The notes: a model not told the origin generated them from the letters alone. A DNA stretch of 64,000 bases from Gammaproteobacteria bacterium (GCA_051008935.1 JBPCXB010000110.1:6560-70559); one strand, 5' to 3'. Shown: positions 6,331 through 23,782, counted from the first letter of the stretch. Numbers and translations are program-made.

Positions 6331-6352
6331 GGAACCTGCTCTTTGCCCAGAT

Positions 6353-7180
6353 TTAGCGGTAGAAACGCTTGATTGCCCTATCCCAGTGCAACAGCAGACT
6401 AGAGCGCATGATATAAACGAATAATCCGACTCCTGCAATTAGAACAGGGAGTGTCAGCAATTGGCCGCGCGTGACCCAGCCCCACAGATCAAAGCCTATG
6501 TGAGTGTCTGGGGTACGGACGAACTCGATACTAATACGGAAGATTCCGTAGCCGACCAGAAAGAGAGCGGCTAATAGCCCGTCGGGCTGATTTTTTCTGT
6601 CCCGGAGCGCCAGCCAATTCAGAACAAAAAACAGCACCAGCCCTTCCAAGACAGCTTCATAGAGCTGTGAGGGGTGTCGGAGCAGTTTTTCAGGGTCAGT
6701 TGCAAAGATCACACCCCAGGGCCCATCGGTTGGTCGGCCCCAGAGTTCTGCATTGATAAAGTTCGCAATACGCATGCAAAAAATGACCAGAGGTGCAGAC
6801 AGGGCGGCTAGATCCATAGCTTGGAGCAAGTTTTTTTGATAGTGTCTGCAACACAGCCAGATGGTGATCAGTCCGCCACATAAAGCGCCGTGGAAAGAGA
6901 GCCCGCCTTCCCACAGGAAGAAAATATCTAGAGGGTTTTGCCAATAGTAAGCAGCATTGTAGAACAATATATACCCAAGCCGTGCTCCGAGCAGTGCGCC
7001 TACAAAGATGTATAGTAGAAAAGTTTCTACCAGCTCGTCGTTCCAGCTAGGCCACTTGCGCGCTACCCGCATCGCTGTGATCCAAGCCATTAACACGCCA
7101 GTAAATGCACAGATGCCATACCAGTGCACAGACAAGGGCCCTAGAGACAGGGCGACTGGATCAATATAAGGCAGGTGCAT
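6353..7180 (-). CDS. lgt: prolipoprotein diacylglyceryl transferase
   Basis: [19 protein letters not shown]...[12 protein letters not shown]...HPSQLYEA. Conserved lgt-thyA pairing. Confidence 0.9.
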
Positions 7181-7979: not shown

Positions 7980-8039
7980 GATCTGCCGTAGTGCTGGGAG
8001 TTTCTAAACAAAATTTTAAGTGGAATCCGTATTTTTTAT

Positions 8040-8995
8040 TACTAAACGTTGCCTGAGACAAGCTCAGGCAACGTAGGACTCTAGACAGCCTTAAACACAA
8101 ATTCTTACTACACCACTACGCACTTAAACACACCCCTCTCTGACACTACTACGCGCCCTGAGCCTGACGAAGGGCGCCTTTAGAAAAAGAGTAAAAATCA
8201 CAAGCTCAGGCAACGTTGTGCACTAGACAGCCTTAAACACAAATTCCATCTACCCTACCACGCGCCCTAAGATAGCCGCTGGCATTTTTTACTTTTTTAT
8301 TTCTAAAGGCTGGACTAGTGCTCTTTACTAAAGGTTGCCTGAAACAAGTTCAGGCAACGTTGTGTACTAGATAGACTTAAACACAAATTCCCTCTACTCC
8401 ACTACGCACTTAAACACACCCCTCTCTGACACTACTACGCGCCCTGAGCCTGACGAAGGGCGCCTTTAGAGAAAGAGTACCAGTTGCCTTTAGAAAAAGA
8501 GTAAAAATCACAGGTTCAGGCAACGTTGTGCACTAGACAGCCTTAAACACAAATTCCATCTACCCTACCACGCGCCCTGAGATAGCCGCTGGCATTTTTT
8601 ACTTTTTTATTTCTAAAGGTTGCCTGAAACAAGTTCAGGCAACGTGGAACTCTAGAAAGTCTTGAACACAAATTCTTATTACACCACTACGCACTCTAAA
8701 CACAATTCCCTCTACTCCACTACGCACTTAAACACACCCCTCTCTGACACCACTACGCGCCCTGAGCCTGACGAAGGGCGCCTTTAGAGAAAGAGTACTA
8801 GTCCGCCTGACTTTTTTTATTACTAAAGGTTGCCTGAAACAAGTTCAGGCAACGTTGTGTACTAGACAGACTTAAACACAATCCTATCTACACTACCACG
8901 CGCCCTGAGCTTGACGAAGGGCGCCTTTAGAAAAAGAGTAAAAATGCCTTTAGAGAAAGAGTACTAGTATAGAATAGCCGCAACCAGAGTTCTCA
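8040..8995. repeat. Non-coding complex tandem macro-repeat array. About 3.5 copies of a 285-300 bp unit, each carrying two conserved hairpins.
   Basis: Direct reading. Recurrent GTTGCCTGAAACAAGTTCAGGCAAC (9-bp stem) at about 8048, 8345, 8628 and 8829, with half copies near 8200 and 8510. Recurrent GCGCCCTGAGCCTGACGAAGGGCGC hairpins. Recurrent CACTACGCAC and TTAAACACAAATTCC motifs. No ORF. Confidence 0.85.
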
Positions 8996-9035
8996 ACGGC
9001 TAACGCCAGTTGAGAGGTACTAGGAGATTTTTTTT

Positions 9036-10154
9036 ATGTTGTGTGCAACTATCTATCAGGCTAGTTATGGTAAGAAGTTTTTTGGGGGTACGCTGATCGT
9101 TGCTGGTATGCTACTTCTGCAGGGTTGCTCGCAAGAGCCAGAGCCGCTTTTGGCGGAAGTTTCCTGCCAAGATGTAGGCGATATTGAGGTAGTCTGTGGT
9201 TTTCACCGGCCGGAAGATCTTGAGCTAACGCCGGATGGTAGTTACCTGATTGTGAGTGAGATGAACGGTACCATTGATGCGACTTTCGACCCGGGTCGGC
9301 TGTCGTTTTATGATCTTCGCACGCGCAAGCGAATCACTGCTGACTTGGAGCTAGATGCGACTCCAGGCTGGGGAGACCCAAACTGTCAGTCGCCCGAGCA
9401 CTTGGATTTTTCGCCGCATGGTATTTATCTGCAGACACAGACCCAACACCCCTACCCAGTGCTGGCGGTAGTCAGTCACTACCCTCGTGAAGCAATAGAA
9501 ATTTTCAGCCTCCAGCACCAAGAAGACGGTCGGCCTTACTTGGTCTGGCGTGGTTGTCTGATCCCACCTGGTATGCCATTTCTGAATGATGTGGCAATTA
9601 CCACTGACGGCACGTTTTATTTCACACATATGTTTGATCGGGATGCTTGGGGTTTTGGGCTGATTGCTCGACTGGTGTTGTCATGGGATACGGGCTTTGT
9701 GTGGTCTTGGTCACCAGCAACAGGCTACAACAAGGTGCCGGGTTCAGATGGCAGCTTTCCCAACGGTATCAGCCTGGACCCCGATGCGGGTATCTTGCTA
9801 GTGAACTATTACACAGATAATCTGATGCAGACTTTTAGCTTAGAGACAGGAAACCGCCTCGGGGCATTTGAGATTCAGTTCCCGGACAATGTGTCTTATG
9901 TTGATGGAGTAGCCTATGTAGCTTCGCACCAGATCGAGTTGGGTGGTTCGGATGCCTGCGCTCACCTGACCAGTACGTGCCCGCTTCCTTACAGCATCTA
10001 CCGGATAGACCCTGTCACTCTGGAAGGTGAGCAGATACTTTATGGTGACGGCCCGCCGTTTGGCTTGGCAACGGTGGCTATTCCTGTGGAGAGGCGATTA
10101 TGGATGGGTTCTTTTACCGGTGATCGTATTGCAAGCGCGCCTTTGGCGCGTTGA
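9036..10154 (+). CDS. Lipoprotein, likely six-bladed beta-propeller (SMP-30/gluconolactonase/LRE-like)
   Basis: Lipobox LLLQGC. DG/NG-rich blade-like segments (PNGISLDPDAG, TDGTFYFTH). Confidence 0.45.
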   Translation: MLCATIYQASYGKKFFGGTLIVAGMLLLQGCSQEPEPLLAEVSCQDVGDIEVVCGFHRPEDLELTPDGSYLIVSEMNGTIDATFDPGRLSFYDLRTRKRITADLELDATPGWGDPNCQSPEHLDFSPHGIYLQTQTQHPYPVLAVVSHYPREAIEIFSLQHQEDGRPYLVWRGCLIPPGMPFLNDVAITTDGTFYFTHMFDRDAWGFGLIARLVLSWDTGFVWSWSPATGYNKVPGSDGSFPNGISLDPDAGILLVNYYTDNLMQTFSLETGNRLGAFEIQFPDNVSYVDGVAYVASHQIELGGSDACAHLTSTCPLPYSIYRIDPVTLEGEQILYGDGPPFGLATVAIPVERRLWMGSFTGDRIASAPLAR

Positions 10155-10164
10155 TATAGTCAGC

Positions 10165-11187
10165 TCATTTGCTAATGGCGGATACCGTTTCCTGTAGCAG
10201 GCTATAGCTTTTGATGCGAGCCTGTATCGGCTCGCAGATGGTCACGACCATCAGTTCGTCGGCATCGCTCTTTTCAACCAGTTTTTGGAGTTTGCTACGA
10301 AGCTGTTCGGGCGTGCCGATCAGGGCGCGTTCATTCTCGGCGGCCGGTTTATTCTGTAAAGCTATGGCGGCTTCTTCGGTGGTGGCAAACTGGCCAAAAA
10401 GCCCGCGCTGTATTTGGTTGCGCCAGAGTGCCGCAGGCTGTGCAAGCTGCCGGGCTTCTGCTTCGGTTTCAGCACAGATGGCAAACACTGCCAGTATGAT
10501 TCTGCCGTCGTCGCTCGAATCTACGGGGCTGTGTTCTTGATTGTAATGTGCGCGCGCTTTTCGATATTCTTGAGCATAATCTGTGCACTCTGGATTGATG
10601 AAGTGGGCTAAAGCCAAGGGCAGCCCGAAATGAGCTGCATAAAGTGCCCCATCCTGACTCGATGCCAATTGCCAGATTTCAGGACGAGGCTGGCCGCTAT
10701 CCACGAGCTGGATACGCCGGAATGCTTCGGTAGTAGGTGCTTCGCCATTGATCCATGCGGTCAGATCGGCTACCTTGGTAGGGTAAAAATCTGCCCCAGT
10801 TGTTTTAGAACCGTAAGCGAGTGCGCCAGCTTGTAAGGGGTCGCCGCCCGGTGCGCGGCCTATACCGAGATCAATCCGATCTGGAAATAAAGTGGCCATG
10901 AGGCTGAAGCATTCAGCCACTTTCAGAGGGCTGTAGTGATTGAGCATAACGCCGCCGGAGCCTACACGGATTGTGTTTGTCCGTGCTGCCAAAGCAGGCA
11001 TCAGCACTTCGGGTGCATTGCCTGCAAAGCTTCGGGCTCCACTTCTGGAATTATGATGCTCTGCAACCCAATAGCGTTTCAGCCCGAGTTTTTCACAGGC
11101 GATTGCACATTCCAAGGTGTTTTGGAGCGCTTCGGCTGATGTTTGGTTGCTGAATACGGGGGATTGGTCTAAAGCGGACAGGTCCAT
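10165..11187 (-). CDS. LLM-class (luciferase-like) flavin-dependent oxidoreductase. Start taken at MDLSAL.
   Basis: MDLSAL...YWVAEHHNS...LGIGRAPGGD motifs typical of the luciferase-like monooxygenase family. Confidence 0.8.
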   Translation of the reverse strand: MDLSALDQSPVFSNQTSAEALQNTLECAIACEKLGLKRYWVAEHHNSRSGARSFAGNAPEVLMPALAARTNTIRVGSGGVMLNHYSPLKVAECFSLMATLFPDRIDLGIGRAPGGDPLQAGALAYGSKTTGADFYPTKVADLTAWINGEAPTTEAFRRIQLVDSGQPRPEIWQLASSQDGALYAAHFGLPLALAHFINPECTDYAQEYRKARAHYNQEHSPVDSSDDGRIILAVFAICAETEAEARQLAQPAALWRNQIQRGLFGQFATTEEAAIALQNKPAAENERALIGTPEQLRSKLQKLVEKSDADELMVVTICEPIQARIKSYSLLQETVSAISK

Positions 11188-11391
11188 TTGCAAGCTGCCA
11201 GTTGGCAGGCGGTAAGATTTTTGAATGCGCTTCATTATATGAGAGCCTAGTACAGGCGTATACCGATTGCGTGGGGGAGGCATCCATGCTTTATTAATGC
11301 GCATGAGCCCCTAGGTTGTTTCTGTGTAGGGTGATTGCCATTTGTTCTCTAGTGAAAGAGTGCCTGTGATAAAGTGTGATGCAGCAGTATA

Positions 11392-13119
11392 GTGCAGCGC
11401 AATATTTGTATCCTCGCATGGCCTGTTGCCATTTATCTCCCTGTTTCAAACTGGTTCTGGATTGATTTGAAAACAGATTGGCTCCAGATTACCCCGGGTG
11501 CGGCTGGCTTTTTGCCTGACCGATTGTCTCGGCCCTTGCGCCTTCAATCGGCGCGTAATATCCGCAAACTGGAATCTTTGGCTAACGCACAGCGTATCAG
11601 CAATTGGACGTTGATGCGTCGTGCAGGTCGGACTGCTTTTGATCTGCTGGGCATCCTGTGGCCCAAGGCCCGGCGACTAACCGTCATTACTGGATCGGGC
11701 AATAATGGTGGAGATGGTTGTGTGCTTGCAGCTTTGGCTGTGCAGGCGGGCTATTCCGTAAATCTGGTTCAATATCAAGGCCGCACCGAGCCATCGGAGC
11801 AGCTGCAGCAGGCTCAAGCCTTGCTCAATGAATGTTCGGCCGAGCATTTGACTCGAATAGAGGCGTCGGGCTGGCAAGCCGGTGAGGAGGAAGCAGATGT
11901 GGTTGTTGACGCGCTGTTTGGCACAGGTTTGGCCCGCACTTTAACCGAAGAAGCCAGTGCACTTTTACGTCAGATGAAGCAGGTGCGCGCTCCTGTGTTC
12001 GCATTGGATATCCCCTCTGGACTGCATGCGGATACGGGGGATTGTGCAGAAGAGATCGTTGAAGCAGAGAGGGTCGATATGGCGGTCAAAGCCGATGCGA
12101 CTCTCACATTTATCGCCCCTAAGCTCGGTCTTTTTACGGGTAAGGGCAGGCACTTCAGCGGTGCAATCTTTGTGACAGATCTGGGTTTGATACAGCAGGA
12201 TTTAGACGCGTCAGAGTTACCGGATAAAGGAGTCGAAACGCTGTGCACGCGCTTTCTGAGTTCTCATATCCCCCAAGTTCCGGCTTATGCTCACAAAGCC
12301 AGTAAGGGACGTGTGCTGGTATTAGGGGGGAGCCCGGGTATGGGCGGGGCCGCTATACTAGCCGCAGAAGCAGCTTTGGTGTCTGGATCTGGTTTGGTGA
12401 CAGCTGCCATAGCCGATGGAACGACCTTGACGGCTCTGTTAGCCCGCCGCCCTGAAGTGATGGGGCATGTCATCCAGCGCCGCTCTGATCTTGAAGCGTT
12501 GTTGTCAAATGTGGATGCAGTTGTTGTAGGCCCAGGTTTGGCTGCGGATGAAACAGGCGCTGATAGGCTGGAACAAGTGCTGCATTGGGCAAATGCCTCT
12601 TCAGCGGGTTCAGCCCGCTTGGTGCTGGATGCAGGTGCTCTGCGTCTTCTGGCTTCCAGTAACCCGGCTCTGAAGATTCCCGCAGATACCGTCTTGACTC
12701 CTCACCCCGGTGAAGCTGCGCAACTCTTGGCATGTTCCACTGCACAGATCCAACAGGATCGGCAACGCAGTGCTGTAGCTCTAGCACAAAAATGGCAGGC
12801 GACGGTAATATTAAAAGGTTCGGGGACAATAGTGGCAGATTCTCGGGGTCAACTGGATCTGTGTCCTTCTGGTAGTATTGCATTGGCGACCGCAGGAACT
12901 GGAGATGTACTCACAGGCCTAGTAGGTTCGCTCCTAGCTATGGGAATGGAGGTGAATGCTGCAGCTGCCTTGGCGACAGCCATGCATGCAGAAGCAGGCG
13001 ATCGGGTAGCCGCATTGGGTACGGTAACGGCATCAAGCTTGATCAGTAGCATATCTGAATTATTCATGGTCTTGCAGACAGCTAATACGCGATCATTACC
13101 ATTGGGCTCATTGAGGTAA
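11392..13119 (+). CDS. nnr: Bifunctional NAD(P)H-hydrate epimerase/dehydratase Nnr (YjeF N- and C-terminal domains). The 5' end is uncertain: the listed start is GTG, and the true start is probably about 100-150 nt downstream.
   Basis: YjeF-N: LMRRAGRTAF...ITGSGNNGGDGCVLAA. YjeF-C: KGRVLVLGGSPGMGGAAILAAEAAL...GTGDVLTG. Synteny nnr-tsaE-amiB-mutL. Confidence 0.85.
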   Translation: MQRNICILAWPVAIYLPVSNWFWIDLKTDWLQITPGAAGFLPDRLSRPLRLQSARNIRKLESLANAQRISNWTLMRRAGRTAFDLLGILWPKARRLTVITGSGNNGGDGCVLAALAVQAGYSVNLVQYQGRTEPSEQLQQAQALLNECSAEHLTRIEASGWQAGEEEADVVVDALFGTGLARTLTEEASALLRQMKQVRAPVFALDIPSGLHADTGDCAEEIVEAERVDMAVKADATLTFIAPKLGLFTGKGRHFSGAIFVTDLGLIQQDLDASELPDKGVETLCTRFLSSHIPQVPAYAHKASKGRVLVLGGSPGMGGAAILAAEAALVSGSGLVTAAIADGTTLTALLARRPEVMGHVIQRRSDLEALLSNVDAVVVGPGLAADETGADRLEQVLHWANASSAGSARLVLDAGALRLLASSNPALKIPADTVLTPHPGEAAQLLACSTAQIQQDRQRSAVALAQKWQATVILKGSGTIVADSRGQLDLCPSGSIALATAGTGDVLTGLVGSLLAMGMEVNAAAALATAMHAEAGDRVAALGTVTASSLISSISELFMVLQTANTRSLPLGSLR

Positions 13120-13135
13120 GCAAAGATTGGTGCTG

Positions 13136-13645
13136 ATGAAGCCTTCCGAACAGCCTCAATGGCACCTGCTTGAAACAGAGCAGGAAACAGGTGTTTTTGC
13201 GGCAGATGTCGCTCGGCGGTTGCTGTCACACATCAAGCAGCAACTGCCCCAAGAGGCTTGGGTGCTGGGCCTGAAGGGCGGCTTGGGTAGTGGTAAGACC
13301 ACTTGGATGCGCTATATGCTACGCACTTTAGGCCATCAGGGCCCAGTGCCGAGCCCCAGTTATACTCTGGCTGAATACTATCAATTGCAGGATTTGCATT
13401 GTTGGCATTTGGATCTTTACCGCTTGCAGCAGGAATCCGAAGTGGCCGCTTTAGGTTTGGATGAGATGCTTTCTATAGGCGGGGTTAGCCAGCCGGTGGT
13501 GTTAGTGGTTGAATGGCCAGAGAAAGGAGGAACGGCATTGCCTGATATCGATCTCGCAATCGAGTTCAAGCACCGGAGTGCAGATGCGCGATGCTACAGT
13601 CTGGAGGCTTACTCTCAGCGTGGTCGGAAGCTGGTGAGCATCTGA
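13136..13645 (+). CDS. tsaE: tRNA threonylcarbamoyladenosine biosynthesis ATPase TsaE
   Basis: P-loop GLKGGLGSGKTT, PSPSYTL, HLDLYRL. Confidence 0.85.
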   Translation: MKPSEQPQWHLLETEQETGVFAADVARRLLSHIKQQLPQEAWVLGLKGGLGSGKTTWMRYMLRTLGHQGPVPSPSYTLAEYYQLQDLHCWHLDLYRLQQESEVAALGLDEMLSIGGVSQPVVLVVEWPEKGGTALPDIDLAIEFKHRSADARCYSLEAYSQRGRKLVSI

Positions 13646-13646
13646 G

Positions 13647-14987
13647 ATGAGGTTGCTGTTAATTGCGGGGCTGTTGTTGGCCAATGCCTGGGCTTCTACC
13701 CCGGTTGCAGGGCAAGTTCCTGTTGAAATCGAACTGCAGGAGTTGATGCTTTATGAGGTAGATCAAGGCGTACGGCTGGAAATCAAACTCGAGCAGCCTG
13801 TGCAGGCTTCGCACTTTGCGTTGAAGCTTCCCGATCGCATAGTGATCGATCTGCCTCAGGTTGTGCGCAAGAAACTTGTCAAGCTGGATATCCCTTATCC
13901 CGCTCAGAAGTGGATTCGCGGCTTGCGCTTAGGCACCCACAAAAAGCATCTGCGGCTGGTTCTCGATTTAACGAAGCCTGTAGATTACAGCTTCAATGCC
14001 GACGGCGCCAGTTGGTATTTGGATATAGATTTACCCAGAGCGCAAACGGAGCAAGGTTTACAGGATACGGCAAACTCAGGTCCTGCAAAGCGTGATCTGG
14101 TGGTATTGATCGATGCCGGGCATGGCGGTAAAGACCCAGGCGCAATCAGTCGCCGAGGGTTGCAGGAAAAAGAAGTAGCACTGCAGATTGCCGCTCATTT
14201 ATACCACTTACTGTTACCTTTAGAGGGGTTTCAGCCCCATATGACCCGTAGCCAAGACTATTATCTGAAGTTGCGCGAACGGCGTGAGCATGCCCAGAAA
14301 ATCAAGGCAGATGTATTTATTTCAGTGCATGCAGATTCAGCGCGCAGTTCTAGAGCACGTGGCGGTTCTGTCTACACTCTGTCACTGGCAGGCGCATCGA
14401 GTGAGGCAGCACGCCAGTTGGCAAAGCGCGAAAATGAAGCAGACAATGAAGTATTGAAAGTGGGAGAGATTGCTTTGGAAGGCGATAAGTCTTTCGACAC
14501 CACTATCGTTGATCTGGCTCAGAGCTCTACCATTGAGCGTAGCCAGTATCTAGCCAAAGCGATCATTAATCAGCTGCGCCAAGTCTCTTATGTGCGTTCG
14601 CTCACTCCAGGAAGGGCTAATTTTGCAGTTTTACGCATGCCATACATTCCTTCGGTTTTGGTAGAGGCTGGTTATCTGAGCAACAACAAGGATGCCGCTT
14701 CTTTAAGTAATGTACGTTTTCGACGCAGGATTGCTCGCGCTATATTGGGAGGCTTGCATCATTATGTGCACAGCAATCCTTATCCAGGTACTATTCGTAG
14801 CCAATCTTCGCGTTTTTTGACTTATAGGGTCAAACAGGGTGACCAATTGTTGCGTATCGCTACTGACTACGGTGTCACGCAATCCTCGATCATGAAGAGC
14901 AACGGTATCCCGCAGGATGCCGAAAATGATTTACAGCCGGGTCAGTTGTTGCGTATTCCCGTTCGCCCTGACCGCGTTAGGAAGTAA
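13647..14987 (+). CDS. amiB: N-acetylmuramoyl-L-alanine amidase (AMIN domain + Amidase_3 + C-terminal LysM)
   Basis: Signal peptide. LVVLIDAGHGGKDPGAI and SVHADS amidase motifs. LysM YRVKQGDQLLRIATDYGV. Locus position upstream of mutL. Confidence 0.8.
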   Translation: MRLLLIAGLLLANAWASTPVAGQVPVEIELQELMLYEVDQGVRLEIKLEQPVQASHFALKLPDRIVIDLPQVVRKKLVKLDIPYPAQKWIRGLRLGTHKKHLRLVLDLTKPVDYSFNADGASWYLDIDLPRAQTEQGLQDTANSGPAKRDLVVLIDAGHGGKDPGAISRRGLQEKEVALQIAAHLYHLLLPLEGFQPHMTRSQDYYLKLRERREHAQKIKADVFISVHADSARSSRARGGSVYTLSLAGASSEAARQLAKRENEADNEVLKVGEIALEGDKSFDTTIVDLAQSSTIERSQYLAKAIINQLRQVSYVRSLTPGRANFAVLRMPYIPSVLVEAGYLSNNKDAASLSNVRFRRRIARAILGGLHHYVHSNPYPGTIRSQSSRFLTYRVKQGDQLLRIATDYGVTQSSIMKSNGIPQDAENDLQPGQLLRIPVRPDRVRK

Positions 14988-14989
14988 CC

Positions 14990-16942
14990 ATGGTCCGGCG
15001 TGTGCAATCTATGCCGCAGGCTGTTGCGGAAGCCGTTGCGGCCGGTGAGGTCATTACCAGACCTGCCGCTGTCATCAAAGAGTTGATTGAAAACAGTGCG
15101 GATGCCGGTTGCCGTAGTATCAAAATAGAGGCCGTAGACGGGGGGCGGCAGTGGCTACGGGTCAGTGATGATGGCACGGGTATTCACAGTGGCGATCTGT
15201 CGCTTTGTATGCAGTCACACACCACCAGCAAGCTCAGTAGACTCGACGAGCTGCAGCGTATCTGTACCTATGGCTTCCGTGGCGAAGCGCTTGCGGCTAT
15301 TCGCGCGGTCTCCAACATCAAAATTTCTACCCGTACCCTGTCGAGCACTCCGCATGGTATAGAAGCCAGAGCCGATCAGATACGCCAGATTCGTGCTCTG
15401 GATGAATGGGGGCATTCTGAAACCGGTACCGTCATACAGGTTGAAGATCTGTTCTTTAATGTGCCCGCTCGGCGTAAGTTTATGCAGTCCGCTGCAACCG
15501 AGAGCCGCCATATTCGTCGGGTTTGCCAACAGTTTGCCTTGGCGCGCCCTGACTTAGGGTTGTCTTTGCTGCTCGATCACAAGATGGTATTGAATCTCCA
15601 GAGCACTGCAAACCGAACGGAAATTCCCCAACGGCTGATCGGATTGATCGGCTCTGATTGGCAGGATCAATTGATACCCCTACAGGCACAGTCCGGAGGC
15701 ATTGAACTCTATGGCTGGTTGGGTAACCCGGATAGGCTCCAGACGCAGCCGTTGCACCAATATTTTTTTATCAATGACCGCCCGATCTCTGATAAGACTA
15801 TTTCAGGTGCAATTCGTTCCTGTTTGGGCTCTGTAGTAGGGCGTAGAGCGCATCCGGTTATAGCTTTATGGTTGTCTATGGATCCTTCACAGGTGGACGT
15901 CAATGTGCATCCTGCCAAGGAAGAAGTGCGCTTTCTATACGCACAAGCAGTGTATGGTATTGTGCGCGCAAGCCTAGAGTCTGCTCTGGCAAGATATGTA
16001 CCAGAGCGGGAATTGAGTGTCCAGCGGGTGAAAAAGCCCAGTGGAGAGACTGCAGCCGTTGTACAGCCTAGGCAGCCGGGCTCAACAGGCGCAAAAAGTC
16101 TTGATTTTTGGGCCAATGCCGGCAAGGAAGCGGATCGATACCCAGCATCGACTGCCATACGTGACGTTATGCGGCAACAGCCCCCCCGATCAGACAGAGC
16201 AGATATTCAAATCGGTGACAGTATTAGCGATCAACCAGCGTCATCCGATTATTTAGAGCTTCTGGATGCTGGTGCCGCTACTGAGAGCCATGGAGAAGCC
16301 TTTAGCCATGGAGAAGCCTTTAGCCAGGAAGCCCTTAGCCAGACAAACGCCCTGCCGCCTTTTACCCTTGGTCATCCGCTGGCGCATTTGGCCGGCGTTT
16401 TTATACTGGCTCAGAATGCCCAAGGACTTGTAATCGTGGATGCGCATGCTGCTCATGAACGTTGTTTGTATGAACAGGTCAGAGCGGAGCTGGATTTGGG
16501 CCAGCTGACGATACAACCTTTACTCATACCCGTGCGCATGAAGCTGGGCGCTGACTTACTCGATGTAGCTGCCGAGCAGGCCCAAGCAATAGGTCGTTTG
16601 GGTTTGGATATCTCTGTGAATGAGGCTAGAGAGTTGGAAGTGCGTGCCGTACCGACTCTGTTGTCGAAGCTAGACCCCACGGATTTAGTAACGACTTTGC
16701 TGATGGATATGGCTCAGGATGCACCGTCGGATGTGTTTGCCGAATCCTTGGCTCATGTATTGGGCAATCTGTGCTGTAAAGCAGCCACCAAGGCGGGCAC
16801 AGAATTGACCCCGAGTGCCATGGAGGCTCTGCTAAGGGCGATGGAGCGCCTGCCGCACACTTCGTATTGCAACCATGGACGCCCCAGTTGGTATGTATTG
16901 CCTCTAGGTGAGTTGGATAAATTGTGCCACAGAGGCCGCTGA
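14990..16942 (+). CDS. mutL: DNA mismatch repair endonuclease MutL. An alternative start is ATG 15011.
   Basis: AAGEVITRPAAVIKELIENSADAG N-terminal GHKL ATPase. C-terminal dimerisation/endonuclease region. Confidence 0.9.
   Translation: MVRRVQSMPQAVAEAVAAGEVITRPAAVIKELIENSADAGCRSIKIEAVDGGRQWLRVSDDGTGIHSGDLSLCMQSHTTSKLSRLDELQRICTYGFRGEALAAIRAVSNIKISTRTLSSTPHGIEARADQIRQIRALDEWGHSETGTVIQVEDLFFNVPARRKFMQSAATESRHIRRVCQQFALARPDLGLSLLLDHKMVLNLQSTANRTEIPQRLIGLIGSDWQDQLIPLQAQSGGIELYGWLGNPDRLQTQPLHQYFFINDRPISDKTISGAIRSCLGSVVGRRAHPVIALWLSMDPSQVDVNVHPAKEEVRFLYAQAVYGIVRASLESALARYVPERELSVQRVKKPSGETAAVVQPRQPGSTGAKSLDFWANAGKEADRYPASTAIRDVMRQQPPRSDRADIQIGDSISDQPASSDYLELLDAGAATESHGEAFSHGEAFSQEALSQTNALPPFTLGHPLAHLAGVFILAQNAQGLVIVDAHAAHERCLYEQVRAELDLGQLTIQPLLIPVRMKLGADLLDVAAEQAQAIGRLGLDISVNEARELEVRAVPTLLSKLDPTDLVTTLLMDMAQDAPSDVFAESLAHVLGNLCCKAATKAGTELTPSAMEALLRAMERLPHTSYCNHGRPSWYVLPLGELDKLCHRGR
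16288..16341 (+). repeat. In-frame 18-bp tandem repeat inside the mutL linker (CCATGGAGAAGCCTTTAG x2, plus a degenerate third copy)
   Basis: Protein ...ESHGEAFSHGEAFSQEALSQ.... DNA read directly. Confidence 0.8.
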
Positions 16943-17016
16943 GGGTAAAATTCCCTATCTGACTCGGCTGCCCGGAAATCTATCAGACAGTTTTCTGTTC
17001 GGCGCCTTCACTCCAG

Positions 17017-18066
17017 ATGCCTGATTCTGTGCATTCAATACCGATAACTCACAACCGTAGTACTCCTCGTACTCCCAGTAGTCACAAAGGCTTAATGTCG
17101 GCTGAATTCAGTTACTGGGTACTTACATTAGCAGCCTTTTGCGGTCTGATAGCAATGATCGTGTATATTGCCGACAAGCATCAACGCTTGAATTTTTTGG
17201 AGATCCCGTGGGATCTTGTCGTGCCTCCTACTGTGAATGTGGCTGAGTTGCTAGAAGCTTCGGAACAGCATTTGAGATACATTGGGCAGTTAGAGGAAGC
17301 CATCAATGAGCATCTCCTCTACTATCTGACACAGTCTGAGCAAGACGATAAGTTTGCCCAGCAGTGGCAGTGGCCTGCAGGGGTGGATGAATTATTTCTG
17401 GTAGGAAACGACAGTTTTATCGGTTGGGCACAGACTGTTCGTTTTTCTGCTTTGGCGAGTGGCAAACTAGAGTTACTAATTCCTATTCCTGAGCAACGGA
17501 TCAGGGAATTGGTATACAGACAATTGATCGATCAGAATCGGGAAGCTTATTACTTTGAAGACGCCCGACAGGATGCAGGTGTTCGCATCTTAATACTTCC
17601 AGAGCTGTATCTGATTAATCTGGCGGTTACAGGCACTCTCTCTGTGGTCAATCGTTGGATTCAGGAGCTACCCTCCGTAGCAAGGCGGGGTTCAGGGGGC
17701 TATCAGACGCGCCAAGCGCGTGTCCAAGCAAGGTTGTGTCGGCCGCTTGGGCAGAAATGGGCGCAATACCCTTCTCTGAGGCAGTTTGGATACAGCCCGC
17801 GTTTATATCGTGAGCAATTGATAGCCAAGATGGGTGAAGAGGAGGGGGCTCAGTACTTTAAATATTGCTTAACTACTGCGGCTCGACGCCGATTCGAAAT
17901 TGAAAACAAGCTGGCTTTGGGAGAGGAATTAACGGAAGTTCAGTTGACGCTTGAGGGGTTGGAGCAGCGCATAGGGGAGATTCAGGATCAAGCCAAGTCT
18001 GAAGAGTATATGGAACAGCTAGAGCGAATCAAAATGCGTTTGCAGTTTATTACGGTTTTGTCCTGA
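17017..18066 (+). CDS. Hypothetical single-pass membrane protein with a C-terminal coiled coil
   Basis: One TM (YWVLTLAAFCGLIAMIVYIA). Heptad-rich C-terminus. No recognisable catalytic motif. Confidence 0.4.
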   Translation: MPDSVHSIPITHNRSTPRTPSSHKGLMSAEFSYWVLTLAAFCGLIAMIVYIADKHQRLNFLEIPWDLVVPPTVNVAELLEASEQHLRYIGQLEEAINEHLLYYLTQSEQDDKFAQQWQWPAGVDELFLVGNDSFIGWAQTVRFSALASGKLELLIPIPEQRIRELVYRQLIDQNREAYYFEDARQDAGVRILILPELYLINLAVTGTLSVVNRWIQELPSVARRGSGGYQTRQARVQARLCRPLGQKWAQYPSLRQFGYSPRLYREQLIAKMGEEEGAQYFKYCLTTAARRRFEIENKLALGEELTEVQLTLEGLEQRIGEIQDQAKSEEYMEQLERIKMRLQFITVLS

Positions 18067-18139
18067 ATGAGATCAGATTGAGCTTTGGTTGCAAAGATAG
18101 CATCCTTGCTCTAGACTGTTAGTTCTATTTGGTAGGCAC

Positions 18140-19426
18140 ATGAACACGGGTCGCACATCAATACATAGAGGCGCATTGCTGGTAGCAGCATTGGCTTGCA
18201 TGGCGTTATTACAGCCTGTGGCTGCTGTTGTTTTATATCCGGGTCTGGATGTAGACGGGAGGATACAGCAGGCACTTAAGCAGTTGCGCCCGGGCGAAAA
18301 AATCAGCCTGTCCGCTGGTGTTTTTCGCTTCCATCAAAGCTTGACTCTGGATATCGAAGGGTTGGTTTTTCAGGGTGCTGGCCGCGACCAGACCATTTTG
18401 TTGTTTGAGCAGGCGGGTGAAGGCGGCGGCATTCTGGTGCGGTCCAGTGCCGTGCGGTTGTCTGGTTTCTCGGTGCAGAAAACGCAAGGCCCAGCATTGC
18501 ACTTAGAGGGGTGCACGGATATTATCATCAGTGATGTCCGGTTGGAATGGCCAGACAGGCAGTGGCGCATTAATTCCTATCTGGATGAGCCGGTACTGCA
18601 CCACATGCACGATGCGCTGAAGATCAGTAACAGTCAGGATATCCTGATTGAATCGGTCAGGAGCCTTGGCGCTTTGGGCTCTGGGATTTCAGTTACAGAA
18701 TCTGCTCGAGTACTCATTCGCAACAGCGAAGCACGAGAGAGCGCCGTAGGCATCTATGTGATGGATAGTAGCCAGATTGAATTGGATTCCAATCAGGTGG
18801 AATCCAATGGTATCGGGATTTTTATCGACGGCAGTCAAGCTACACGGGGCACCAAGCATGTGCGGATAGTCAAAAACCAGGTGAGCAACAACAATAATTT
18901 CAATTTTGCCATAGAAGATTATTGGCGTTATGTTGAGCCTTTGGGCACGGGCTTAGTGATTGTAGGTGGCAAAGATATAGAGGTTTCTGCCAATAGTATC
19001 AGCTACCACGGCACGGCCAATCTATTGATCAGCGCGCATGATTCTATGCTTTTTCCGGATCGCGTGTACATTCATAACAACGCATTCTCCCATTCAGGTT
19101 ATGCGCCTGATTTTGCTCGGGCAGGTTATCTGTTAATTGCAGGTTCTGGCAAATTAGCCAGTATTGTTTGGGATGGAAACGTGCCTTGGCAGGAGATGCT
19201 AGGCTTCGAACCCAGAACTGGGCGCGTAGTTCTGGGCATTAATGCGGGTGCAGATTTCGTCGATTTGGATCTGCCTTGGTATGATTCCATGCCCGCTTTG
19301 CATAGACCCAAGAGAGATTATCGGAATTACTCAGGTTCGTTGCGACCTTTACCTGCTGTGCGTTTCATCAGCAGTAATGTGGCGGCTTTTAATCGAGAAA
19401 CACAGGATCAGTCTTTACAGGAGTAA
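18140..19426 (+). CDS. Secreted right-handed parallel beta-helix repeat protein (pectate-lyase fold, possible glycan hydrolase or lyase)
   Basis: Signal peptide. Consecutive PbH1-like turns (ISNSQDILIESVRS / GISVTESARVLIRNSEA / GIYVMDSSQIELDSNQVE / GIGIFIDGS). Confidence 0.6.
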   Translation: MNTGRTSIHRGALLVAALACMALLQPVAAVVLYPGLDVDGRIQQALKQLRPGEKISLSAGVFRFHQSLTLDIEGLVFQGAGRDQTILLFEQAGEGGGILVRSSAVRLSGFSVQKTQGPALHLEGCTDIIISDVRLEWPDRQWRINSYLDEPVLHHMHDALKISNSQDILIESVRSLGALGSGISVTESARVLIRNSEARESAVGIYVMDSSQIELDSNQVESNGIGIFIDGSQATRGTKHVRIVKNQVSNNNNFNFAIEDYWRYVEPLGTGLVIVGGKDIEVSANSISYHGTANLLISAHDSMLFPDRVYIHNNAFSHSGYAPDFARAGYLLIAGSGKLASIVWDGNVPWQEMLGFEPRTGRVVLGINAGADFVDLDLPWYDSMPALHRPKRDYRNYSGSLRPLPAVRFISSNVAAFNRETQDQSLQE

Positions 19427-19431
19427 CTGGT

Positions 19432-19454
19432 AATTGCGATTCATTCACAATTGC
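19432..19454 (+). promoter_or_regulatory. Putative Fur box upstream of feoA (imperfect palindrome AATTGCGATTCATTCACAATTGC)
   Basis: AT-rich imperfect dyad of the nATwAT type, 80 bp upstream of feoA. Typical context for Fur-regulated feoAB. Confidence 0.3.
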
Positions 19455-19535
19455 TTATAATATGTACTTGCTAATTTAGGCAGCGTAGCTTCCGTATGCT
19501 CTGTCTCTTCTTGTTTAAGCCACTGTGTCACGATT

Positions 19536-19874
19536 ATGAATCCTTCAAAGCGCCTCGCTCAGATTGCAAATGTAGAGCCTGATCATTCCGAATCGGCTGT
19601 TTTAGAAGAACAGGCGCAGGTCTCCAACGATCTCAACATCAGAAGCTTGGATCAGATGGAGCTGGACGTTCCTGCCCGTATTACCTCTGTTGGTGTAGCA
19701 GGCAAGGACCATGATTTTTTGGATGAGCTGGGCATTCATGCGGGAAACAGTGTGCGTGTCTTTAAGCGCGCTCCTATTTTTCAGGACCCCATAGCGGTTT
19801 ATGTAGGAAGTCGTTTGGTTTCAGTCAGGCGCCATGTGGCTCGCAGAGTGCAGGTGCAGATTATCGACAATTAA
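19536..19874 (+). CDS. feoA: FeoA-family ferrous iron transport protein (N-terminally extended)
   Basis: SH3-like FeoA motif ARITSVGVAGKDHDFLDELGIHAGNSVRVFKRAPIFQDPIAVYVG. Directly upstream of feoB. Confidence 0.7.
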   Translation: MNPSKRLAQIANVEPDHSESAVLEEQAQVSNDLNIRSLDQMELDVPARITSVGVAGKDHDFLDELGIHAGNSVRVFKRAPIFQDPIAVYVGSRLVSVRRHVARRVQVQIIDN

Positions 19875-19927
19875 AAATACCAAGGTTTGGGCGCCTTTTT
19901 CTCTGACCATTAATAGGCGAACTTGGT

Positions 19928-21805
19928 ATGAACAGTGCATTTAGCGTTGCACTGGTAGGTTGCCCGAATAGCGGTAAAACAAGCCTTTTTAATCTACTGA
20001 CAGGTAGCTTCCAACGTATTGCTAATTACGCAGGGGTTACGGTGCAGGTGCAGCAGGGTACCCATCGGCTGCGTGATCAGGGCCGTGATATCCAAGTCAT
20101 TGATTTGCCGGGCATCTATGGCCTGTCAGGATCCACAGAAGAACAGCTGTTGGCGCTGTCCGTACTCAAGGGAGTAGAGGCAGGTAGCAATAGCCGAGAT
20201 GCTGCGCCGGTTGTTGCAGTTGAAAAACCCAACTTGATGCTCTGTGTTATTGATGCTAGCCAGCTAGAGGATCAGTTGCCCTTAGCCATAGCTTTGCGTG
20301 CCCTGAATATTCCTATGGTGGTGGTTCTGAACCAGATGGATATTGTGCGCAAACAGGGCGTATCTGTCGATATAGAGCAGCTGAGTCAGCTGCTGGGATG
20401 TGCCTGCGTCGGCTCTGTAGCAACCCGCCGCAAGGGCATCGCACAGGTGCTCACTACCTTGGCTGATTATGAGCAACGGCATCAAGCGAGCCAGTCTTTG
20501 AAGCTGGAACGGATCCCTGCCAATATTGACTCAGGCCGGATTCAGACCTCTGTTTCAGACATCATGCAGCAGGTATGGAAGCGTACCGGGCAGTCAACGC
20601 ATGCATCCAACCGGTTGGATCAGATACTCCTGAATCCGATACTGGGCCCCGCCATCATGCTGGGGACGCTCTTTTTGCTTTTCCAAGCCGTGTTTGTGTG
20701 GGCGGCGCCTCCTAGTGAGTGGATAGCTGCGGGTTTAGATAACCTAGGGACAGCGCTAGCGCACGCTTGGCCCCAGAATCTTCTGACGGAGGTGTTGTTA
20801 CTGGCCGTCTTGCCTGGTATCGGCGCGGTGCTTGAATTTCTGCCGCCAATTATTCTTGTCAGTCTGTTCCTACTGATCTTGGAAGGAACGGGATATATTG
20901 CTCGGTTGGCATTCTTTTGCGATGCACTTCTAGCACGGATTGGTCTGGGAGGCCATGCCGTCTTTCCCATGTTGTCGGGTTTTGCATGTGCCATACCTGC
21001 CATCATATCCGTGCGCTCTATCCCAGACAGCAGGATCCGTCTGGCTGTGATGATGGCCTTACCTTTGGTGCCCTGCTCTGCCCGACTTCCTGTTTATGCT
21101 TTGGTGATAGCAGCTGTGATTCCGAGCGTTTCTGTGTGGGGTTTTGGCTTGCAGGGGTTGGTTTTATTTGGACTCTATGCGCTTGGATTGATTGCGTCAT
21201 TGGCTGTCGCAGCCATTATCAGCTTTTATTCCTCTGCCAGCCCTTTTACCCCTTTGGAACTTCCAGCTTACAGATGGCCAACGGTGCGTAATATTTTGAT
21301 GGGGCTGTGGCTACGTATGCGGCATTTTCTGACTCGAGCGGGCCAGATTATTCTGGCAGTGTCCGTTTTTCTATGGGTGCTTTCGCAGATTCGGGTCGGT
21401 AGTCAAGAGGGCATAGAGGGAACTTTATTAGGTGCGATAGGTAACGGCATTGCTCCTATTTTTGCTCCGATCGGCTTTAGTTGGGAGATGTCGATAGCTC
21501 TGGTGCCTGGTTTTTTGGCTAGAGAAGTGGCAGTTGCGGCTCTGGCTACTGTGTATGCCATTTCTGCGGGCTCCGTGGATGATCTGGCATCGGCACTTGC
21601 TGCAGACTGGTCTCTGGCCTCAGGGCTGTCTTTCGTAGTGTGGTATGTCTTTGCGCCCCAGTGCGTAGCAACCTTGGGTATGATCAAATCTGAGACAGGA
21701 TCGTGGCGTATCGTGGGATTAACTGCTGGTTATTTGTTTGTGCTAGCCTGGTTGGCGTCTTTTATCGTCTATCAGAGCTTTGCTGGTCTGGATGTGACGA
21801 TCTGA
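19928..21805 (+). CDS. feoB: Ferrous iron transporter FeoB (short, 625 aa, form)
   Basis: G-domain ALVGCPNSGKTSLFNLLTG...DLPGIYGLS...LNQMD. Polytopic membrane domain. Confidence 0.9.
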   Translation: MNSAFSVALVGCPNSGKTSLFNLLTGSFQRIANYAGVTVQVQQGTHRLRDQGRDIQVIDLPGIYGLSGSTEEQLLALSVLKGVEAGSNSRDAAPVVAVEKPNLMLCVIDASQLEDQLPLAIALRALNIPMVVVLNQMDIVRKQGVSVDIEQLSQLLGCACVGSVATRRKGIAQVLTTLADYEQRHQASQSLKLERIPANIDSGRIQTSVSDIMQQVWKRTGQSTHASNRLDQILLNPILGPAIMLGTLFLLFQAVFVWAAPPSEWIAAGLDNLGTALAHAWPQNLLTEVLLLAVLPGIGAVLEFLPPIILVSLFLLILEGTGYIARLAFFCDALLARIGLGGHAVFPMLSGFACAIPAIISVRSIPDSRIRLAVMMALPLVPCSARLPVYALVIAAVIPSVSVWGFGLQGLVLFGLYALGLIASLAVAAIISFYSSASPFTPLELPAYRWPTVRNILMGLWLRMRHFLTRAGQIILAVSVFLWVLSQIRVGSQEGIEGTLLGAIGNGIAPIFAPIGFSWEMSIALVPGFLAREVAVAALATVYAISAGSVDDLASALAADWSLASGLSFVVWYVFAPQCVATLGMIKSETGSWRIVGLTAGYLFVLAWLASFIVYQSFAGLDVTI

Positions 21806-21833
21806 GGCGGTGCCCAGCCCCGACTGAGCCTTT

Positions 21834-22631
21834 TTAGTCCCTCGAATCCGAGCAGCCTGTTTCAGGTATTCGACCGTGATCCGCCAGATAGAACTTTCCT
21901 ATCAGATTGACGTTCATTTTGAGCGTGCCGGCAGCTACGGGCACAGGGGCATTTTCTTTGTGCGCCTGAGTCTGTAATTGGGTATTTCTGAACGCTGATC
22001 GGGGGATGCCAGCGGGGATATTTTCTTCTGTTATGCTCGCAATACCGCTGATCTTGGTGCCGAGAGCCCGCGCCATTTTGTCGGCCTTAGTGCGCAATTT
22101 GGCAGCAGTTTCAATCAGCAACCGTTCTTTCAGGCTCTCTGGATCCGACAGGGTAAAGCGGATATTGTGGGCCATATTGGCACCCGCATTTATAGCTGCA
22201 GTAATGACATAGCCGATGCGGTTCAAATTTTCCAGCTTGACTTCCAGGCGGTTGGTGGCTTCGTAGTGAGAAATTTCTGCCGCTTTTCCGGATTGGTACT
22301 GGTATCTAGGTGCCACTGATAGTGCTTTAGTCTGTATCTGCTTCGGCTTAATACCTAATGCTTCGATGGCATCAAGTACCTGTTGTACCAGTCGCGCATT
22401 GTGGCTGGTAGCTGATTGCGCATCTTTAGCTTCTGTGCGCACACCTAGGGTAATGCGTGCTAGATCGGGGGATGCTTCGGATGTGGTGCTGGCACGGAGG
22501 CTGAGTACGCTGTCGCAGTGCAAGGCGGCGGCAGCTGGAGACGAACCGGCTACACAGAAGGCTAGCATCGACAGAGCCGCAGTTTTTACGAACTCAGAGA
22601 GTGGCAGAGGCGTTCGAGGAAATGTAGGCAT
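21834..22631 (-). CDS. SIMPL (DUF541, YggE-like) periplasmic protein. Start taken at MPTFPRT, not the ORF-track ATG, which would run through argE.
   Basis: Signal peptide plus SIMPL-domain core (ITLGVRTEAKDAQSA...EATNRLEVKLENL...NIRFTLSDPESL). Confidence 0.65.
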   Translation of the reverse strand: MPTFPRTPLPLSEFVKTAALSMLAFCVAGSSPAAAALHCDSVLSLRASTTSEASPDLARITLGVRTEAKDAQSATSHNARLVQQVLDAIEALGIKPKQIQTKALSVAPRYQYQSGKAAEISHYEATNRLEVKLENLNRIGYVITAAINAGANMAHNIRFTLSDPESLKERLLIETAAKLRTKADKMARALGTKISGIASITEENIPAGIPRSAFRNTQLQTQAHKENAPVPVAAGTLKMNVNLIGKFYLADHGRIPETGCSDSRD

Positions 22632-23782
22632 TGGCAGAGTTGTTCTTGAGTGACGAATTCGTTGGGTTTGTGCGCTTGTGCCAGATCGCCTGGCCCTATG
22701 ACAACAGCAGGGATATGGCCATTTTGGAAAAAGCCGGCTTCTGTGCCGATAGACAGTACGCCGGTGTTCTGGCTCCCTGTCAATTGGGCCGCCAGACTGA
22801 GTGCCGGTGATTGTTCGAGGGTGAGTGGTGTGAGTCCGGGATAGGACGCTTCTATGATATTTTCGATGCCAGCCTGCCTGTGCCGCTCTTGCATCGCAGG
22901 TTCGAGCTCGGTATTTAGCCAAGCTTCCAGATGCGACTGGAACAGCTCTAGGTTTGCCCCCGGCATGGATCGGTAGTGCCAGTCGACCTGACAGCGGGCT
23001 GCAAAAATATTGAGCGCGGTGCCGCCTTGGATGACACCAGCATTGATAGTCCCATAGGGTACGTTGAATTGCTGGTATTCGGTGGTGTTCTCTGATTGGA
23101 GGGCCATCTCCTGTTCCAGATCAGACAGATGGGTAACAAAGCGCGCCGCAAAAGGTATGGAGCTGATGCCCTCTTCTGGCATGGAACTGTGTGCGGGTAC
23201 ACCGTGAAACGATGTGTGTGCAACGATACCGCCTTTGTGTCCGGCGATGATTTCCATGCAGGTGGGCTCACCCACCACAGCTGCTGCAGGGCGCATCCCC
23301 GTTTCTCTGAGCATGTCCAGCATGTCGTCTGCGCCTAGGCAGCCAATCTCCTCGTCGCGTGAAAAGGCCAGGTGTACGGGCTTTTTCAGCGGCGCACGGG
23401 CAAATTCAGGAGCCATGGCCAAGGCACAGGCGATAAAGCCTTTCATATCACAGGTGCCCCGCCCATAGAGATATGGAGGTGCGCTTTTGAGCGCAAAGGG
23501 GTCGCTGTGCCAGTCCTGATCTGCTACGTCCACTACATCAGTATGCCCCGAAAGCACTACGCCATCATTTGCTACCGGCCCAATACTGGCTAACAGGTTT
23601 GCCTTGGTGCGCTCAGGGTTCAAGCGTACTTGGCTTTCAAGGTGCAGGCTTGCTTGTAAATGTTGGTTGATCGCTTCGATCAATTCCAGATTGCTGTGTC
23701 GGGAAATAGTGTTGAAGGATACAAGCTGTCTGAGCCATTCAGTTGCCTCAGGTAGTAGCGGGTGAGTGGTCGGTAGAGTCAT
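22586..23782 (-). CDS. argE: Acetylornithine deacetylase (M20 peptidase family)
   Basis: LSGHTDVV...GRGTCDMKG...LAFSRDEE...HKPNEF, co-linear with E. coli ArgE. Confidence 0.8.
   Translation of the reverse strand: MTLPTTHPLLPEATEWLRQLVSFNTISRHSNLELIEAINQHLQASLHLESQVRLNPERTKANLLASIGPVANDGVVLSGHTDVVDVADQDWHSDPFALKSAPPYLYGRGTCDMKGFIACALAMAPEFARAPLKKPVHLAFSRDEEIGCLGADDMLDMLRETGMRPAAAVVGEPTCMEIIAGHKGGIVAHTSFHGVPAHSSMPEEGISSIPFAARFVTHLSDLEQEMALQSENTTEYQQFNVPYGTINAGVIQGGTALNIFAARCQVDWHYRSMPGANLELFQSHLEAWLNTELEPAMQERHRQAGIENIIEASYPGLTPLTLEQSPALSLAAQLTGSQNTGVLSIGTEAGFFQNGHIPAVVIGPGDLAQAHKPNEFVTQEQLCQCLHFLERLCHSLSS

Follow-up and report, generated by a model that had tools for sequence, protein, structure and literature searches.

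The gammaproteobacterial superoperon nnr(yjeF)-tsaE(yjeE)-amiB-mutL-miaA-hfq-hflX is a well-known string of genes, and the locus considered here raises the question of what has happened where that string breaks off. It lies within a 64,000-nt stretch of a metagenome-assembled genome (MAG) of a gammaproteobacterium (GCA_051008935.1, JBPCXB010000110.1:6560-70559), referred to below as the window and numbered from its first letter. The window has the first four genes of the superoperon in the same order and orientation but is without miaA-hfq, having instead two open reading frames (ORFs) at positions 17017-19426, termed ORF-A and ORF-B, and then feoAB. An earlier reading made from the DNA alone (the sequence-only reading) had taken the pair for an insertion. 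The account favoured here, to which a probability of about 0.6 is given, is that the arrangement represents an old, clade-specific gene order in which ORF-B is a divergent binding or scaffold protein of the TIGR03805 family and is preceded by a variable slot.

Gene order in the nearest relatives

The relatives that bear on this question were found by a protein search with MutL, in which four sequences were set apart, at 585-625 bits and 44-49 % identity to the MutL of the window, the next best having 422 bits and 38 %; three of the four came with usable contigs (loci L089, L090 and L091). On an 883-kb ENA contig, L089 has the order TPR-folA-thyA-lgt-tauE-unknown-luciferase-like-nnr-tsaE-amidase-mutL-betahelix-feoA-feoB-SIMPL, which is collinear with window positions 3219-22922 except for the missing ORF-A. 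The stop codon of mutL in L089 overlaps the start of the gene for a 406-aa beta-helix protein (TGATG), and this gene is translationally coupled to mutL. Within L090, mutL is followed by a gene for a 363-aa protein that has no Pfam match, a gene for a 412-aa beta-helix protein, feoA and feoB, and L091 runs from nnr through tsaE, the amidase gene and mutL to a gene for a 352-aa protein, where the contig stops. ORF-B is 42 % identical to the beta-helix protein of L089 (E = 2e-114) and 38 % identical to that of L090 (E = 1e-97). Since the order mutL-(slot)-beta-helix-feoAB has been kept even though the other proteins common to the window and its relatives are only 36-57 % identical, the break after mutL appears to be an old, clade-wide gene order.

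The lineage, comprising this MAG and three metagenomic relatives, is a poorly sampled, deep-branching gammaproteobacterial clade. The GC content is 51 % in the window and 61-65 % in the relatives, and the source MAG is a strongly diverged, lower-GC member of this barely sampled group. A scan of metagenome contigs with an alignment of the beta-helix subfamily returned only one, irrelevant locus of 23 % identity.

The genes of the locus, all on the + strand and followed downstream of feoAB by genes on the opposite strand, are as follows.

11392-13119, + strand: nnr, encoding a bifunctional NAD(P)H-hydrate repair enzyme, first gene of the string (Pfam YjeF_N and Carb_kinase; TIGR00196, TIGR00197)
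13127-13645, + strand: tsaE (Pfam TsaE; TIGR00150, 96.9 bits against a cutoff of 60.1)
13647-14987, + strand: gene for a periplasmic N-acetylmuramoyl-L-alanine amidase, AmiB/AmiC-like (AMIN, Amidase_3 and LysM)
14990-16942, + strand: mutL, last gene of the conserved string (TIGR00585, 456 bits)
17017-18066, + strand: ORF-A, an orphan bitopic membrane protein of 349 aa from the first ATG (no family match)
18140-19426, + strand: ORF-B, a secreted right-handed parallel beta-helix protein of 428 aa (TIGR03805, Pfam and an AlphaFold2 model)
19536-19874, + strand: feoA (Pfam FeoA, 2.6e-10)
19928-21805, + strand: feoB (TIGR00437, 392 bits against a cutoff of 315.65)

The order nnr-tsaE-amiB-mutL named by the sequence-only reading is upheld by the Pfam and NCBIfam assignments of all four genes, and ORF calls together with the same two collections also agree with it on the 349-aa and 428-aa frames and on feoAB after them. 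The synteny breakpoint falls directly 3' of mutL.

Absence of miaA-hfq and the question of an insertion

To what extent miaA-hfq should be expected at this point was judged from a scan of one genome per GTDB species with the MutL of the window, which yielded 80 loci; the MutL proteins in this survey are distant, being no more than 37 % identical to that of the window and including no close relative. Among about 20 gammaproteobacterial loci surveyed, mutL-miaA(-hfq) occurs in about 15, ten of which have the full nnr-tsaE-amidase-mutL-miaA-hfq string, and the premise that miaA-hfq normally follows mutL is thereby borne out. Profile hidden Markov models (HMMs) of MiaA (from 29 sequences) and Hfq (from 26) were run over the six-frame translation, with a locus from the survey (L029) as the positive control, which scored 2e-136 and 5e-40. 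Neither these HMMs nor tblastn found any miaA or hfq gene, whole or degraded, within the 64-kb window, and the same HMMs did not find either gene in the L089-L091 loci. ORF-A was also considered as a remnant of miaA, there being two weak tblastn matches of Escherichia coli MiaA within it (E = 0.83, in different frames); this candidate was ruled out, as the matches disappear without composition-based statistics and the 29-sequence MiaA HMM gives nothing there.

The proposal of the sequence-only reading amounts to a horizontally acquired two-gene module for envelope or polysaccharide processing, inserted between mutL and miaA. Several observations fit it, namely that the GC content over the pair (0.47-0.51) is slightly under that of the flanks (0.51-0.56), that ORF-A is an orphan, that beta-helix proteins are often glycan-active or phage-derived, and that ORF-B has a weak PHROG tail-spike match (6.4e-05) and a list of Foldseek matches that includes lyases and tailspikes. 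However, a simple two-gene insertion would keep miaA-hfq after ORF-B, and the presence of feoAB there instead leaves the insertion unsupported. No direct repeats were found flanking the borders of ORF-A and ORF-B, no integrase or transposase gene is among their annotated neighbours, and the sole tRNA gene of the window, at 50089, is 30 kb off. The composition of the two genes is native as well: their in-frame codon-usage scores (0.115 for ORF-A and 0.161 for ORF-B) fall within the range of the other genes of the window (0.03-0.20), and their GC contents at the three codon positions are typical of those genes. Moreover, relatives with proteins only about 40-55 % identical have their beta-helix gene at this very site, and the two genes travel apart, the first being absent from L089. 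The two are thus not a fixed pair, L089 having no slot gene of any kind and ORF-A having no detectable homologue. The marks of a mobile element or genomic island would be repeats, a tRNA gene as target, genes for mobility, a foreign composition and no counterpart in relatives; all of these are wanting, and a clade-wide arrangement without signs of insertion, which had been named beforehand as the outcome that speaks against the proposal, is largely what was found. Clade synteny thus appears largely to refute an insertion, and we regard it as very improbable. What endures from the sequence-only reading are its descriptions of the genes, in the main, and its recognition that the mutL-miaA-hfq order is broken.

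ORF-B as a divergent branch of the TIGR03805 family

The features recognized within ORF-B are listed here.

18140-18226, + strand: Sec-type signal peptide, residues 1-29 (...QPVAA/VV; hydropathy, a model helix at 11-24, and homologues)
18263-19177, + strand: beta-helix domain, residues 42-346 (TIGR03805 match and conservation analysis)
19094-19369, + strand: C-terminal region, residues ~319-410 (three-sequence clade alignment)

That ORF-B is a signal-peptide protein built as a parallel beta-helix, as first described, was confirmed by HMM searches, hydropathy and an AlphaFold2 (AF2) model. Against Pfam, the protein matches Beta_helix (7.5e-17) and, over residues 152-253, NosD (9.6e-14). It also passes TIGR03805 (beta_helix_1) with 174.2 bits against a cutoff of 141.5, the match spanning profile positions 1-313 of 314. 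The AF2 model, made from 32 sequences, is confident (predicted local distance difference test score, pLDDT, 85.6; predicted template-modelling score, pTM, 0.87) and consists throughout of stacked three-strand beta-helix rungs behind an N-terminal signal helix. Orthologues and canonical homologues of ORF-B all start with a signal peptide, which the NCBI start at M21 (408 aa) removes; an alternative gene call, P0164, gives 428 aa.

The homologues of ORF-B that were found first, at most 32 % identical to it, are canonical TIGR03805 proteins. These are at least 35 % identical to one another (mean, 47 %) and at most 31-35 % identical to the proteins of the clade. ORF-B shares with them its length, its signal peptide, the beta-helix fold, the Asn/Gly ladder and a C-terminal PD..WDG motif, but differs in having no adjacent cytochrome gene, in its location between mutL and feoAB, and in an 11-residue insertion at residues 150-160. 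Within all four of the complete canonical contexts, the next gene 3' of the TIGR03805 gene encodes a dihaem cytochrome c of the SO2930 family (TIGR03806). These partners are 320-380 aa long. Two of them score 348 and 405 bits against TIGR03806, which verifies their assignment, and the remaining pair show 43-50 % identity to these; two CXXCH motifs are present in three of the four, the remaining one having a single motif. By contrast, feoA and not a cytochrome gene comes next after the beta-helix gene in the window, L089 and L090, and neither tblastn nor an ORF scan found an SO2930-type gene, a remnant of one or a multi-CXXCH ORF within the window.

The divergence of ORF-B is also seen at the level of single residues. 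An alignment of 31 canonical members has 53 invariant columns, of which ORF-B retains 27, the L089 protein 28 and the L090 protein 24. Those kept are mostly Gly, Asn, Leu and Phe, i.e. the structural ladder, and those lost include all the invariant charged or polar residues that might form a functional site, with K121, D180, Y184, Q187, E206, E208 and N209 replaced in ORF-B by H, G, S, E, Y, M and D, respectively. At three of these positions the replacements differ among the proteins of the window, L089 and L090 (G/A/G at D180, Y/R/G at E206 and M/E/S at E208), which implies relaxed constraint there. The lost acidic/polar cluster was probably the ancestral metal or active site of the TIGR03805 family. 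The ExE plus Asp of canonical members may resemble the Ca2+ site of PL6 enzymes, and those are exactly the residues that ORF-B is without. On the strength of its family match, its residue losses and its gene context, ORF-B appears to be a divergent, cytochrome-less branch of the family. Within the clade subfamily, a three-sequence alignment places the best-conserved part in the C-terminal region, residues ~319-410 (SGYAPD...IVWDG...GADFV.L.LPW...ALH), and reveals no conserved cluster of Cys or His.

Two of the canonical contexts have neighbours of a different kind. At L002 (8368-8796), the TIGR03805/SO2930 pair is followed by fur, encoding a Fur-family regulator, and at L086 (4951-5466) the pair is near a gene for a PCuAC-like (LpqE-like, PF04314) copper chaperone. 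These two metal-related neighbours are a possible hint that the canonical pair is itself metal-related.

ORF-A and the variable slot

The features of ORF-A are two.

17104-17178, + strand: single transmembrane segment, residues 30-54 (Kyte-Doolittle, 19-residue window, maximum 2.34)
17890-18063, + strand: C-terminal heptad-like charged helical region, residues ~292-348 (crude heptad scan)

ORF-A had been described as a single-span membrane protein with a long C-terminal coiled coil and no recognizable motifs. Hydropathy agrees with a single hydrophobic segment, and no Pfam, NCBIfam or PHROG entry matches the protein. However, the heptad-like sequence is limited to about 55 aa, so that any coiled coil is short rather than long; a low-confidence AF2 model has helices at 274-300, 312-325 and 329-348. 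The net charge of the N-terminal tail is +1 versus -1 after the transmembrane segment, and the topology with the N-terminus inside and the C-terminal domain in the periplasm is weakly favoured. As ORF-A has a coiled coil and lies near an amidase gene, activators of the EnvC/NlpD type were considered, but their marker, the LytM (Peptidase_M23) domain, is absent from ORF-A in Pfam and NCBIfam searches at E <= 0.01. The proteins in the slots of L090 and L091 likewise match nothing in Pfam or NCBIfam at E <= 0.001 and so have no LytM domain.

The start of ORF-A bears on how much of the membrane anchor is retained. The first ATG is not preceded by a convincing Shine-Dalgarno sequence. At 17095, an alternative start (M27, 323 aa) has AAGG 5 nt upstream and corresponds to gene call P0163 of 323 aa. 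With the start given by NCBI, M47 (303 aa), the transmembrane helix is cut. Both P0163 and the 428-aa call for ORF-B are independent gene calls on Logan assemblies. The N-terminal tails of the relatives' slot proteins favour the M1 start.

Searches for homologues of ORF-A returned only the protein itself, whether by phmmer among 1.84 billion representative proteins or by a word-indexed search of 5.8 billion clusters. The latter search had missed the ORF-B orthologues P0156 and P0158 (38-42 % identical), which are representatives in the same collection, and its results of no closer homologue, taken alone, are therefore unsafe for divergent proteins. Comparison with the slot proteins of L090 and L091 gave BLASTP E values above 1 and an hhalign probability of 0.55 %; the z-scores of global alignment were 2.2-2.6 with the transmembrane segment and only 1.3 and -0.5 once this segment was left out, and homology to these two proteins is thus not demonstrable. 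A QWQ..WP motif at residue 116-117 in ORF-A and both slot proteins is not significant. What the three proteins do share is their layout: an N-terminal tail of 22-30 residues, in which Pro, His, Arg and Ser are frequent, precedes a single transmembrane segment (residues 25-54), beyond which a C-terminal domain extends for about 300 aa. Identity between the L090 and L091 slot proteins is 32 % (E = 9e-59), whereas the MutL proteins of these loci are 72 % identical, which indicates that the slot position evolves very fast. Given that MutL of the window is about 45 % identical to those of its relatives, an orthologue of ORF-A that had diverged at the L090/L091 rate would be undetectable. The odds are roughly even that ORF-A is such an orthologue, diverged past recognition, or a lineage-specific replacement.

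It might also be argued that ORF-A is a spurious or decaying frame and not a functional gene at all. The lack of homologues in the collections searched, the poor ribosome-binding site at the first ATG, the very poor structure prediction and the empty slot in L089 would all suit such a view. On the other hand, a chance frame of 349 codons in DNA of 51 % GC is very unlikely (an estimated ~1e-7 per start position), and the codon score of the frame is typical of the genes of the window, all five other frames over ORF-A scoring negative. Native, frame-specific codon usage indicates that ORF-A is a real or recently real gene. A clear transmembrane helix, a layout like that of the L090 and L091 slot proteins and the AAGG before M27 argue in the same direction, and it is hard to credit that the frame is spurious.

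Function of ORF-B

The explanation that we favour begins with the break of the conserved nnr-tsaE-amiB-mutL-miaA-hfq string after mutL in this lineage, where a beta-helix gene and then feoAB would have come to follow. ORF-B would descend from the TIGR03805 family, the version found in this clade having lost its SO2930 cytochrome partner along with about half of the invariant residues. Exported by the Sec pathway, it is predicted to fold in the periplasm as a beta-helix of about 10 rungs. It would no longer carry out the ancestral and presumably cytochrome-coupled chemistry; its present role is probably to bind a glycan or protein ligand in the periplasm, or to act there as a scaffold for one, and not to serve as the ancestral enzyme did. 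Between mutL and the beta-helix gene there would be a variable slot, empty in L089, occupied by an anchored protein of 352-363 aa in L090 and L091, and by ORF-A in the window. ORF-A itself would be an inner-membrane protein with a periplasmic domain, and a role for it as a membrane tether or partner of periplasmic proteins may be imagined.

An alternative is that ORF-B is an active periplasmic glycan enzyme, be it a lyase, an epimerase or a hydrolase, whose active site has been re-modelled and which acts on peptidoglycan or exopolysaccharide along with the AmiB-like amidase, with ORF-A as its membrane-bound partner or regulator. The best Foldseek matches of the ORF-B model in the PDB are the mannuronan C5-epimerases AlgE4 and AlgE6, PL6 lyases (chondroitinase B, AlyGC), RbmB and Pel9A, and tailspikes are matched too; AlgE4 is also the top profile-sequence match (E = 0.0027), and precomputed annotations include Pel9A-like_beta_helix. 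Furthermore, the gene lies close to amidase-mutL in the same orientation, and in L089 it is translationally coupled to mutL. However, the likeness to glycan-active beta-helix enzymes is one of fold and is generic for that fold, with E values of 3.5e-08 to 1e-05, TM-scores of 0.3-0.5, root-mean-square deviations of 7-16 Å and identities of 9-14 %. No HMM of such a family is passed (Glyco_hydro_28 scores 15.7 against a cutoff of 22.9), and the catalytic residues of the lyase, epimerase and GH28 families cannot be mapped with confidence. The D/E/E/K cluster that is invariant in the TIGR03805 family is lost without a conserved alternative at those positions, and adjacency to the amidase gene says little, since the genes of the E. 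coli amiB-mutL-miaA-hfq string are functionally unrelated to one another. An enzymatic role of this kind is considered unlikely, although it is the best placed of the alternatives.

Several points nonetheless count against the explanation that ORF-B is a binding or scaffold protein within an old gene order. The picture of the clade rests on four genomes, and adjacency within it may reflect inheritance and not selection. The search for miaA-hfq covered the 64-kb window and the loci of the relatives, and the two genes may lie elsewhere in these genomes. Loss of the ancestral site leaves catalysis possible, since beta-helix enzymes vary in where their active sites are placed, and the clade subfamily does keep many invariant polar residues, three sequences being too few to interpret them. 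No published function was found in the literature for TIGR03805 or SO2930, and the ancestral chemistry of the canonical family is thus hypothetical. As for the slot, structure prediction, which served well for ORF-B, gave for ORF-A a single-sequence model with a pLDDT of 38.5, which is unusable, and the isoelectric point of ORF-A is 5.6 versus 9.7 and 10.1 for the slot proteins of the relatives, a difference that weakens orthology.

The neighbouring feoAB genes

One further site is of relevance to the relationship between ORF-B and feoAB.

19434-19461, + strand: promoter-like site TTGCGA-16-TATAAT, matching at 10/12 positions, in the 109-nt spacer before feoA

A third view of ORF-B is that the beta-helix protein serves FeoAB, the ferrous-iron transporter, as an accessory in the periplasm, where it might bind or present metal and so replace the redox partner of the ancestral family. 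The beta-helix-feoA-feoB adjacency holds in all three clade genomes for which the region is available, even as the genes beyond SIMPL vary (gyrB-recF-dnaN-dnaA in L089 and argE-trxB in the window). The ancestral family is paired with a cytochrome and has the two metal-related neighbours noted above (fur after the L002 pair and the PCuAC-like chaperone gene near that of L086), and ORF-B matches Pfam NosD. NosD is the periplasmic beta-helix subunit of the NosDFY system for maturation of N2O reductase, and ORF-B resembles it in its Pfam domain and in being a periplasmic beta-helix. However, ORF-B reaches just 38 bits on the NosD family model TIGR04247 against a cutoff of 300, and no nosZ, nosF, nosY or nosL is among the annotated neighbours in the window. 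Also weighing against an accessory of FeoAB are the lack of a conserved Cys/His cluster in the subfamily, the absence of any consistent iron link in the canonical contexts, and the small base of the adjacency, i.e. three genomes of one clade. Finally, the beta-helix gene is parted from feoA by an AT-rich spacer of about 110-187 nt in all three genomes, and the promoter-like site in that of the window suggests that feoAB may form a transcription unit of its own. Such an accessory role is doubtful, more so than that of a glycan enzyme. More doubtful again, if only by a little, is the extended form of this idea, according to which the cytochrome-less subfamily is an unrecognized FeoAB accessory or metal-handling factor kept beside feoAB and the slot protein is its tether, under diversifying selection.

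Matches to the E. coli Fur-box consensus before feoA in the window, L089 and L090 (11-12/19) are not above background; the best upstream of feoA in the window is 11/19, a match equalled by 216 sites within the window. Comparison of these three upstream regions (window 19427-19535, L089 13066-13251 and L090 5105-5244) shows motifs of the ATTGCGAT/ATTGCAAT type that are common to the window and L089. A clade-specific site for an iron regulator before feoA is possible.

Beyond feoB, the SIMPL gene is on the + strand in L089 and the - strand in the window, implying a local inversion. The stretch of L089 at 15424-21845, in which mutL-betahelix-feoAB-SIMPL adjoins gyrB-recF-dnaN-dnaA, is near the replication origin, and in the window SIMPL is followed by argE, trxB and an aminotransferase gene and, later, by mutS, cinA and recA. 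The different genes beyond SIMPL indicate further rearrangement between the two genomes.

Other features of the window

Within mutL, an 18-bp perfect tandem duplication (AGCCATGGAGAAGCCTTT x2) is present at 16286-16321; it is in frame and doubles six residues in the variable linker. The SIMPL/DUF541 ORF, as listed from a TTG start (21834-22922, - strand), overlaps the acetylornithine-deacetylase gene (22586-23782, - strand) by more than 300 nt; as Pfam matches it only from residue 141 onwards and its orthologue in L089 has 247 aa, the listed start is evidently over-extended. Upstream of nnr, between tauE and the luciferase-like gene, is a 372-aa ORF without a Pfam match (9036-10154, + strand), and its positional counterpart in L089, of 365 aa, has no Pfam match either; this may be another clade-conserved gene of unknown function. 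At 50089-59337, a tRNA-Lys(UUU) gene is followed by genes for two giant repeat proteins, one of 1100 aa with a PKD-like domain and the other of 1897 aa with eight He_PIG immunoglobulin domains as well as Big_9, Big_13 and RibLong. The two resemble adhesins, and there may be an island at the tRNA gene.

Implications

A synteny break beside a well-known operon, which looked like an insertion, proved to be a stable gene order once the clade was compared. The result is a correction together with a small evolutionary curiosity; it entails no new mechanism and touches no long-standing open question, and the functions discussed here are inferred. Two of its aspects concern the proteins themselves. 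The slot between mutL and the beta-helix gene is fast-evolving, as judged from its identity between L090 and L091 relative to that of MutL, and its occupant in the window is an orphan. What is new is a branch of the TIGR03805 family that is without a cytochrome partner and in which the conserved site is degenerate, and this cytochrome-less branch could help to dissect the role of the conserved pair of beta-helix protein and dihaem cytochrome.

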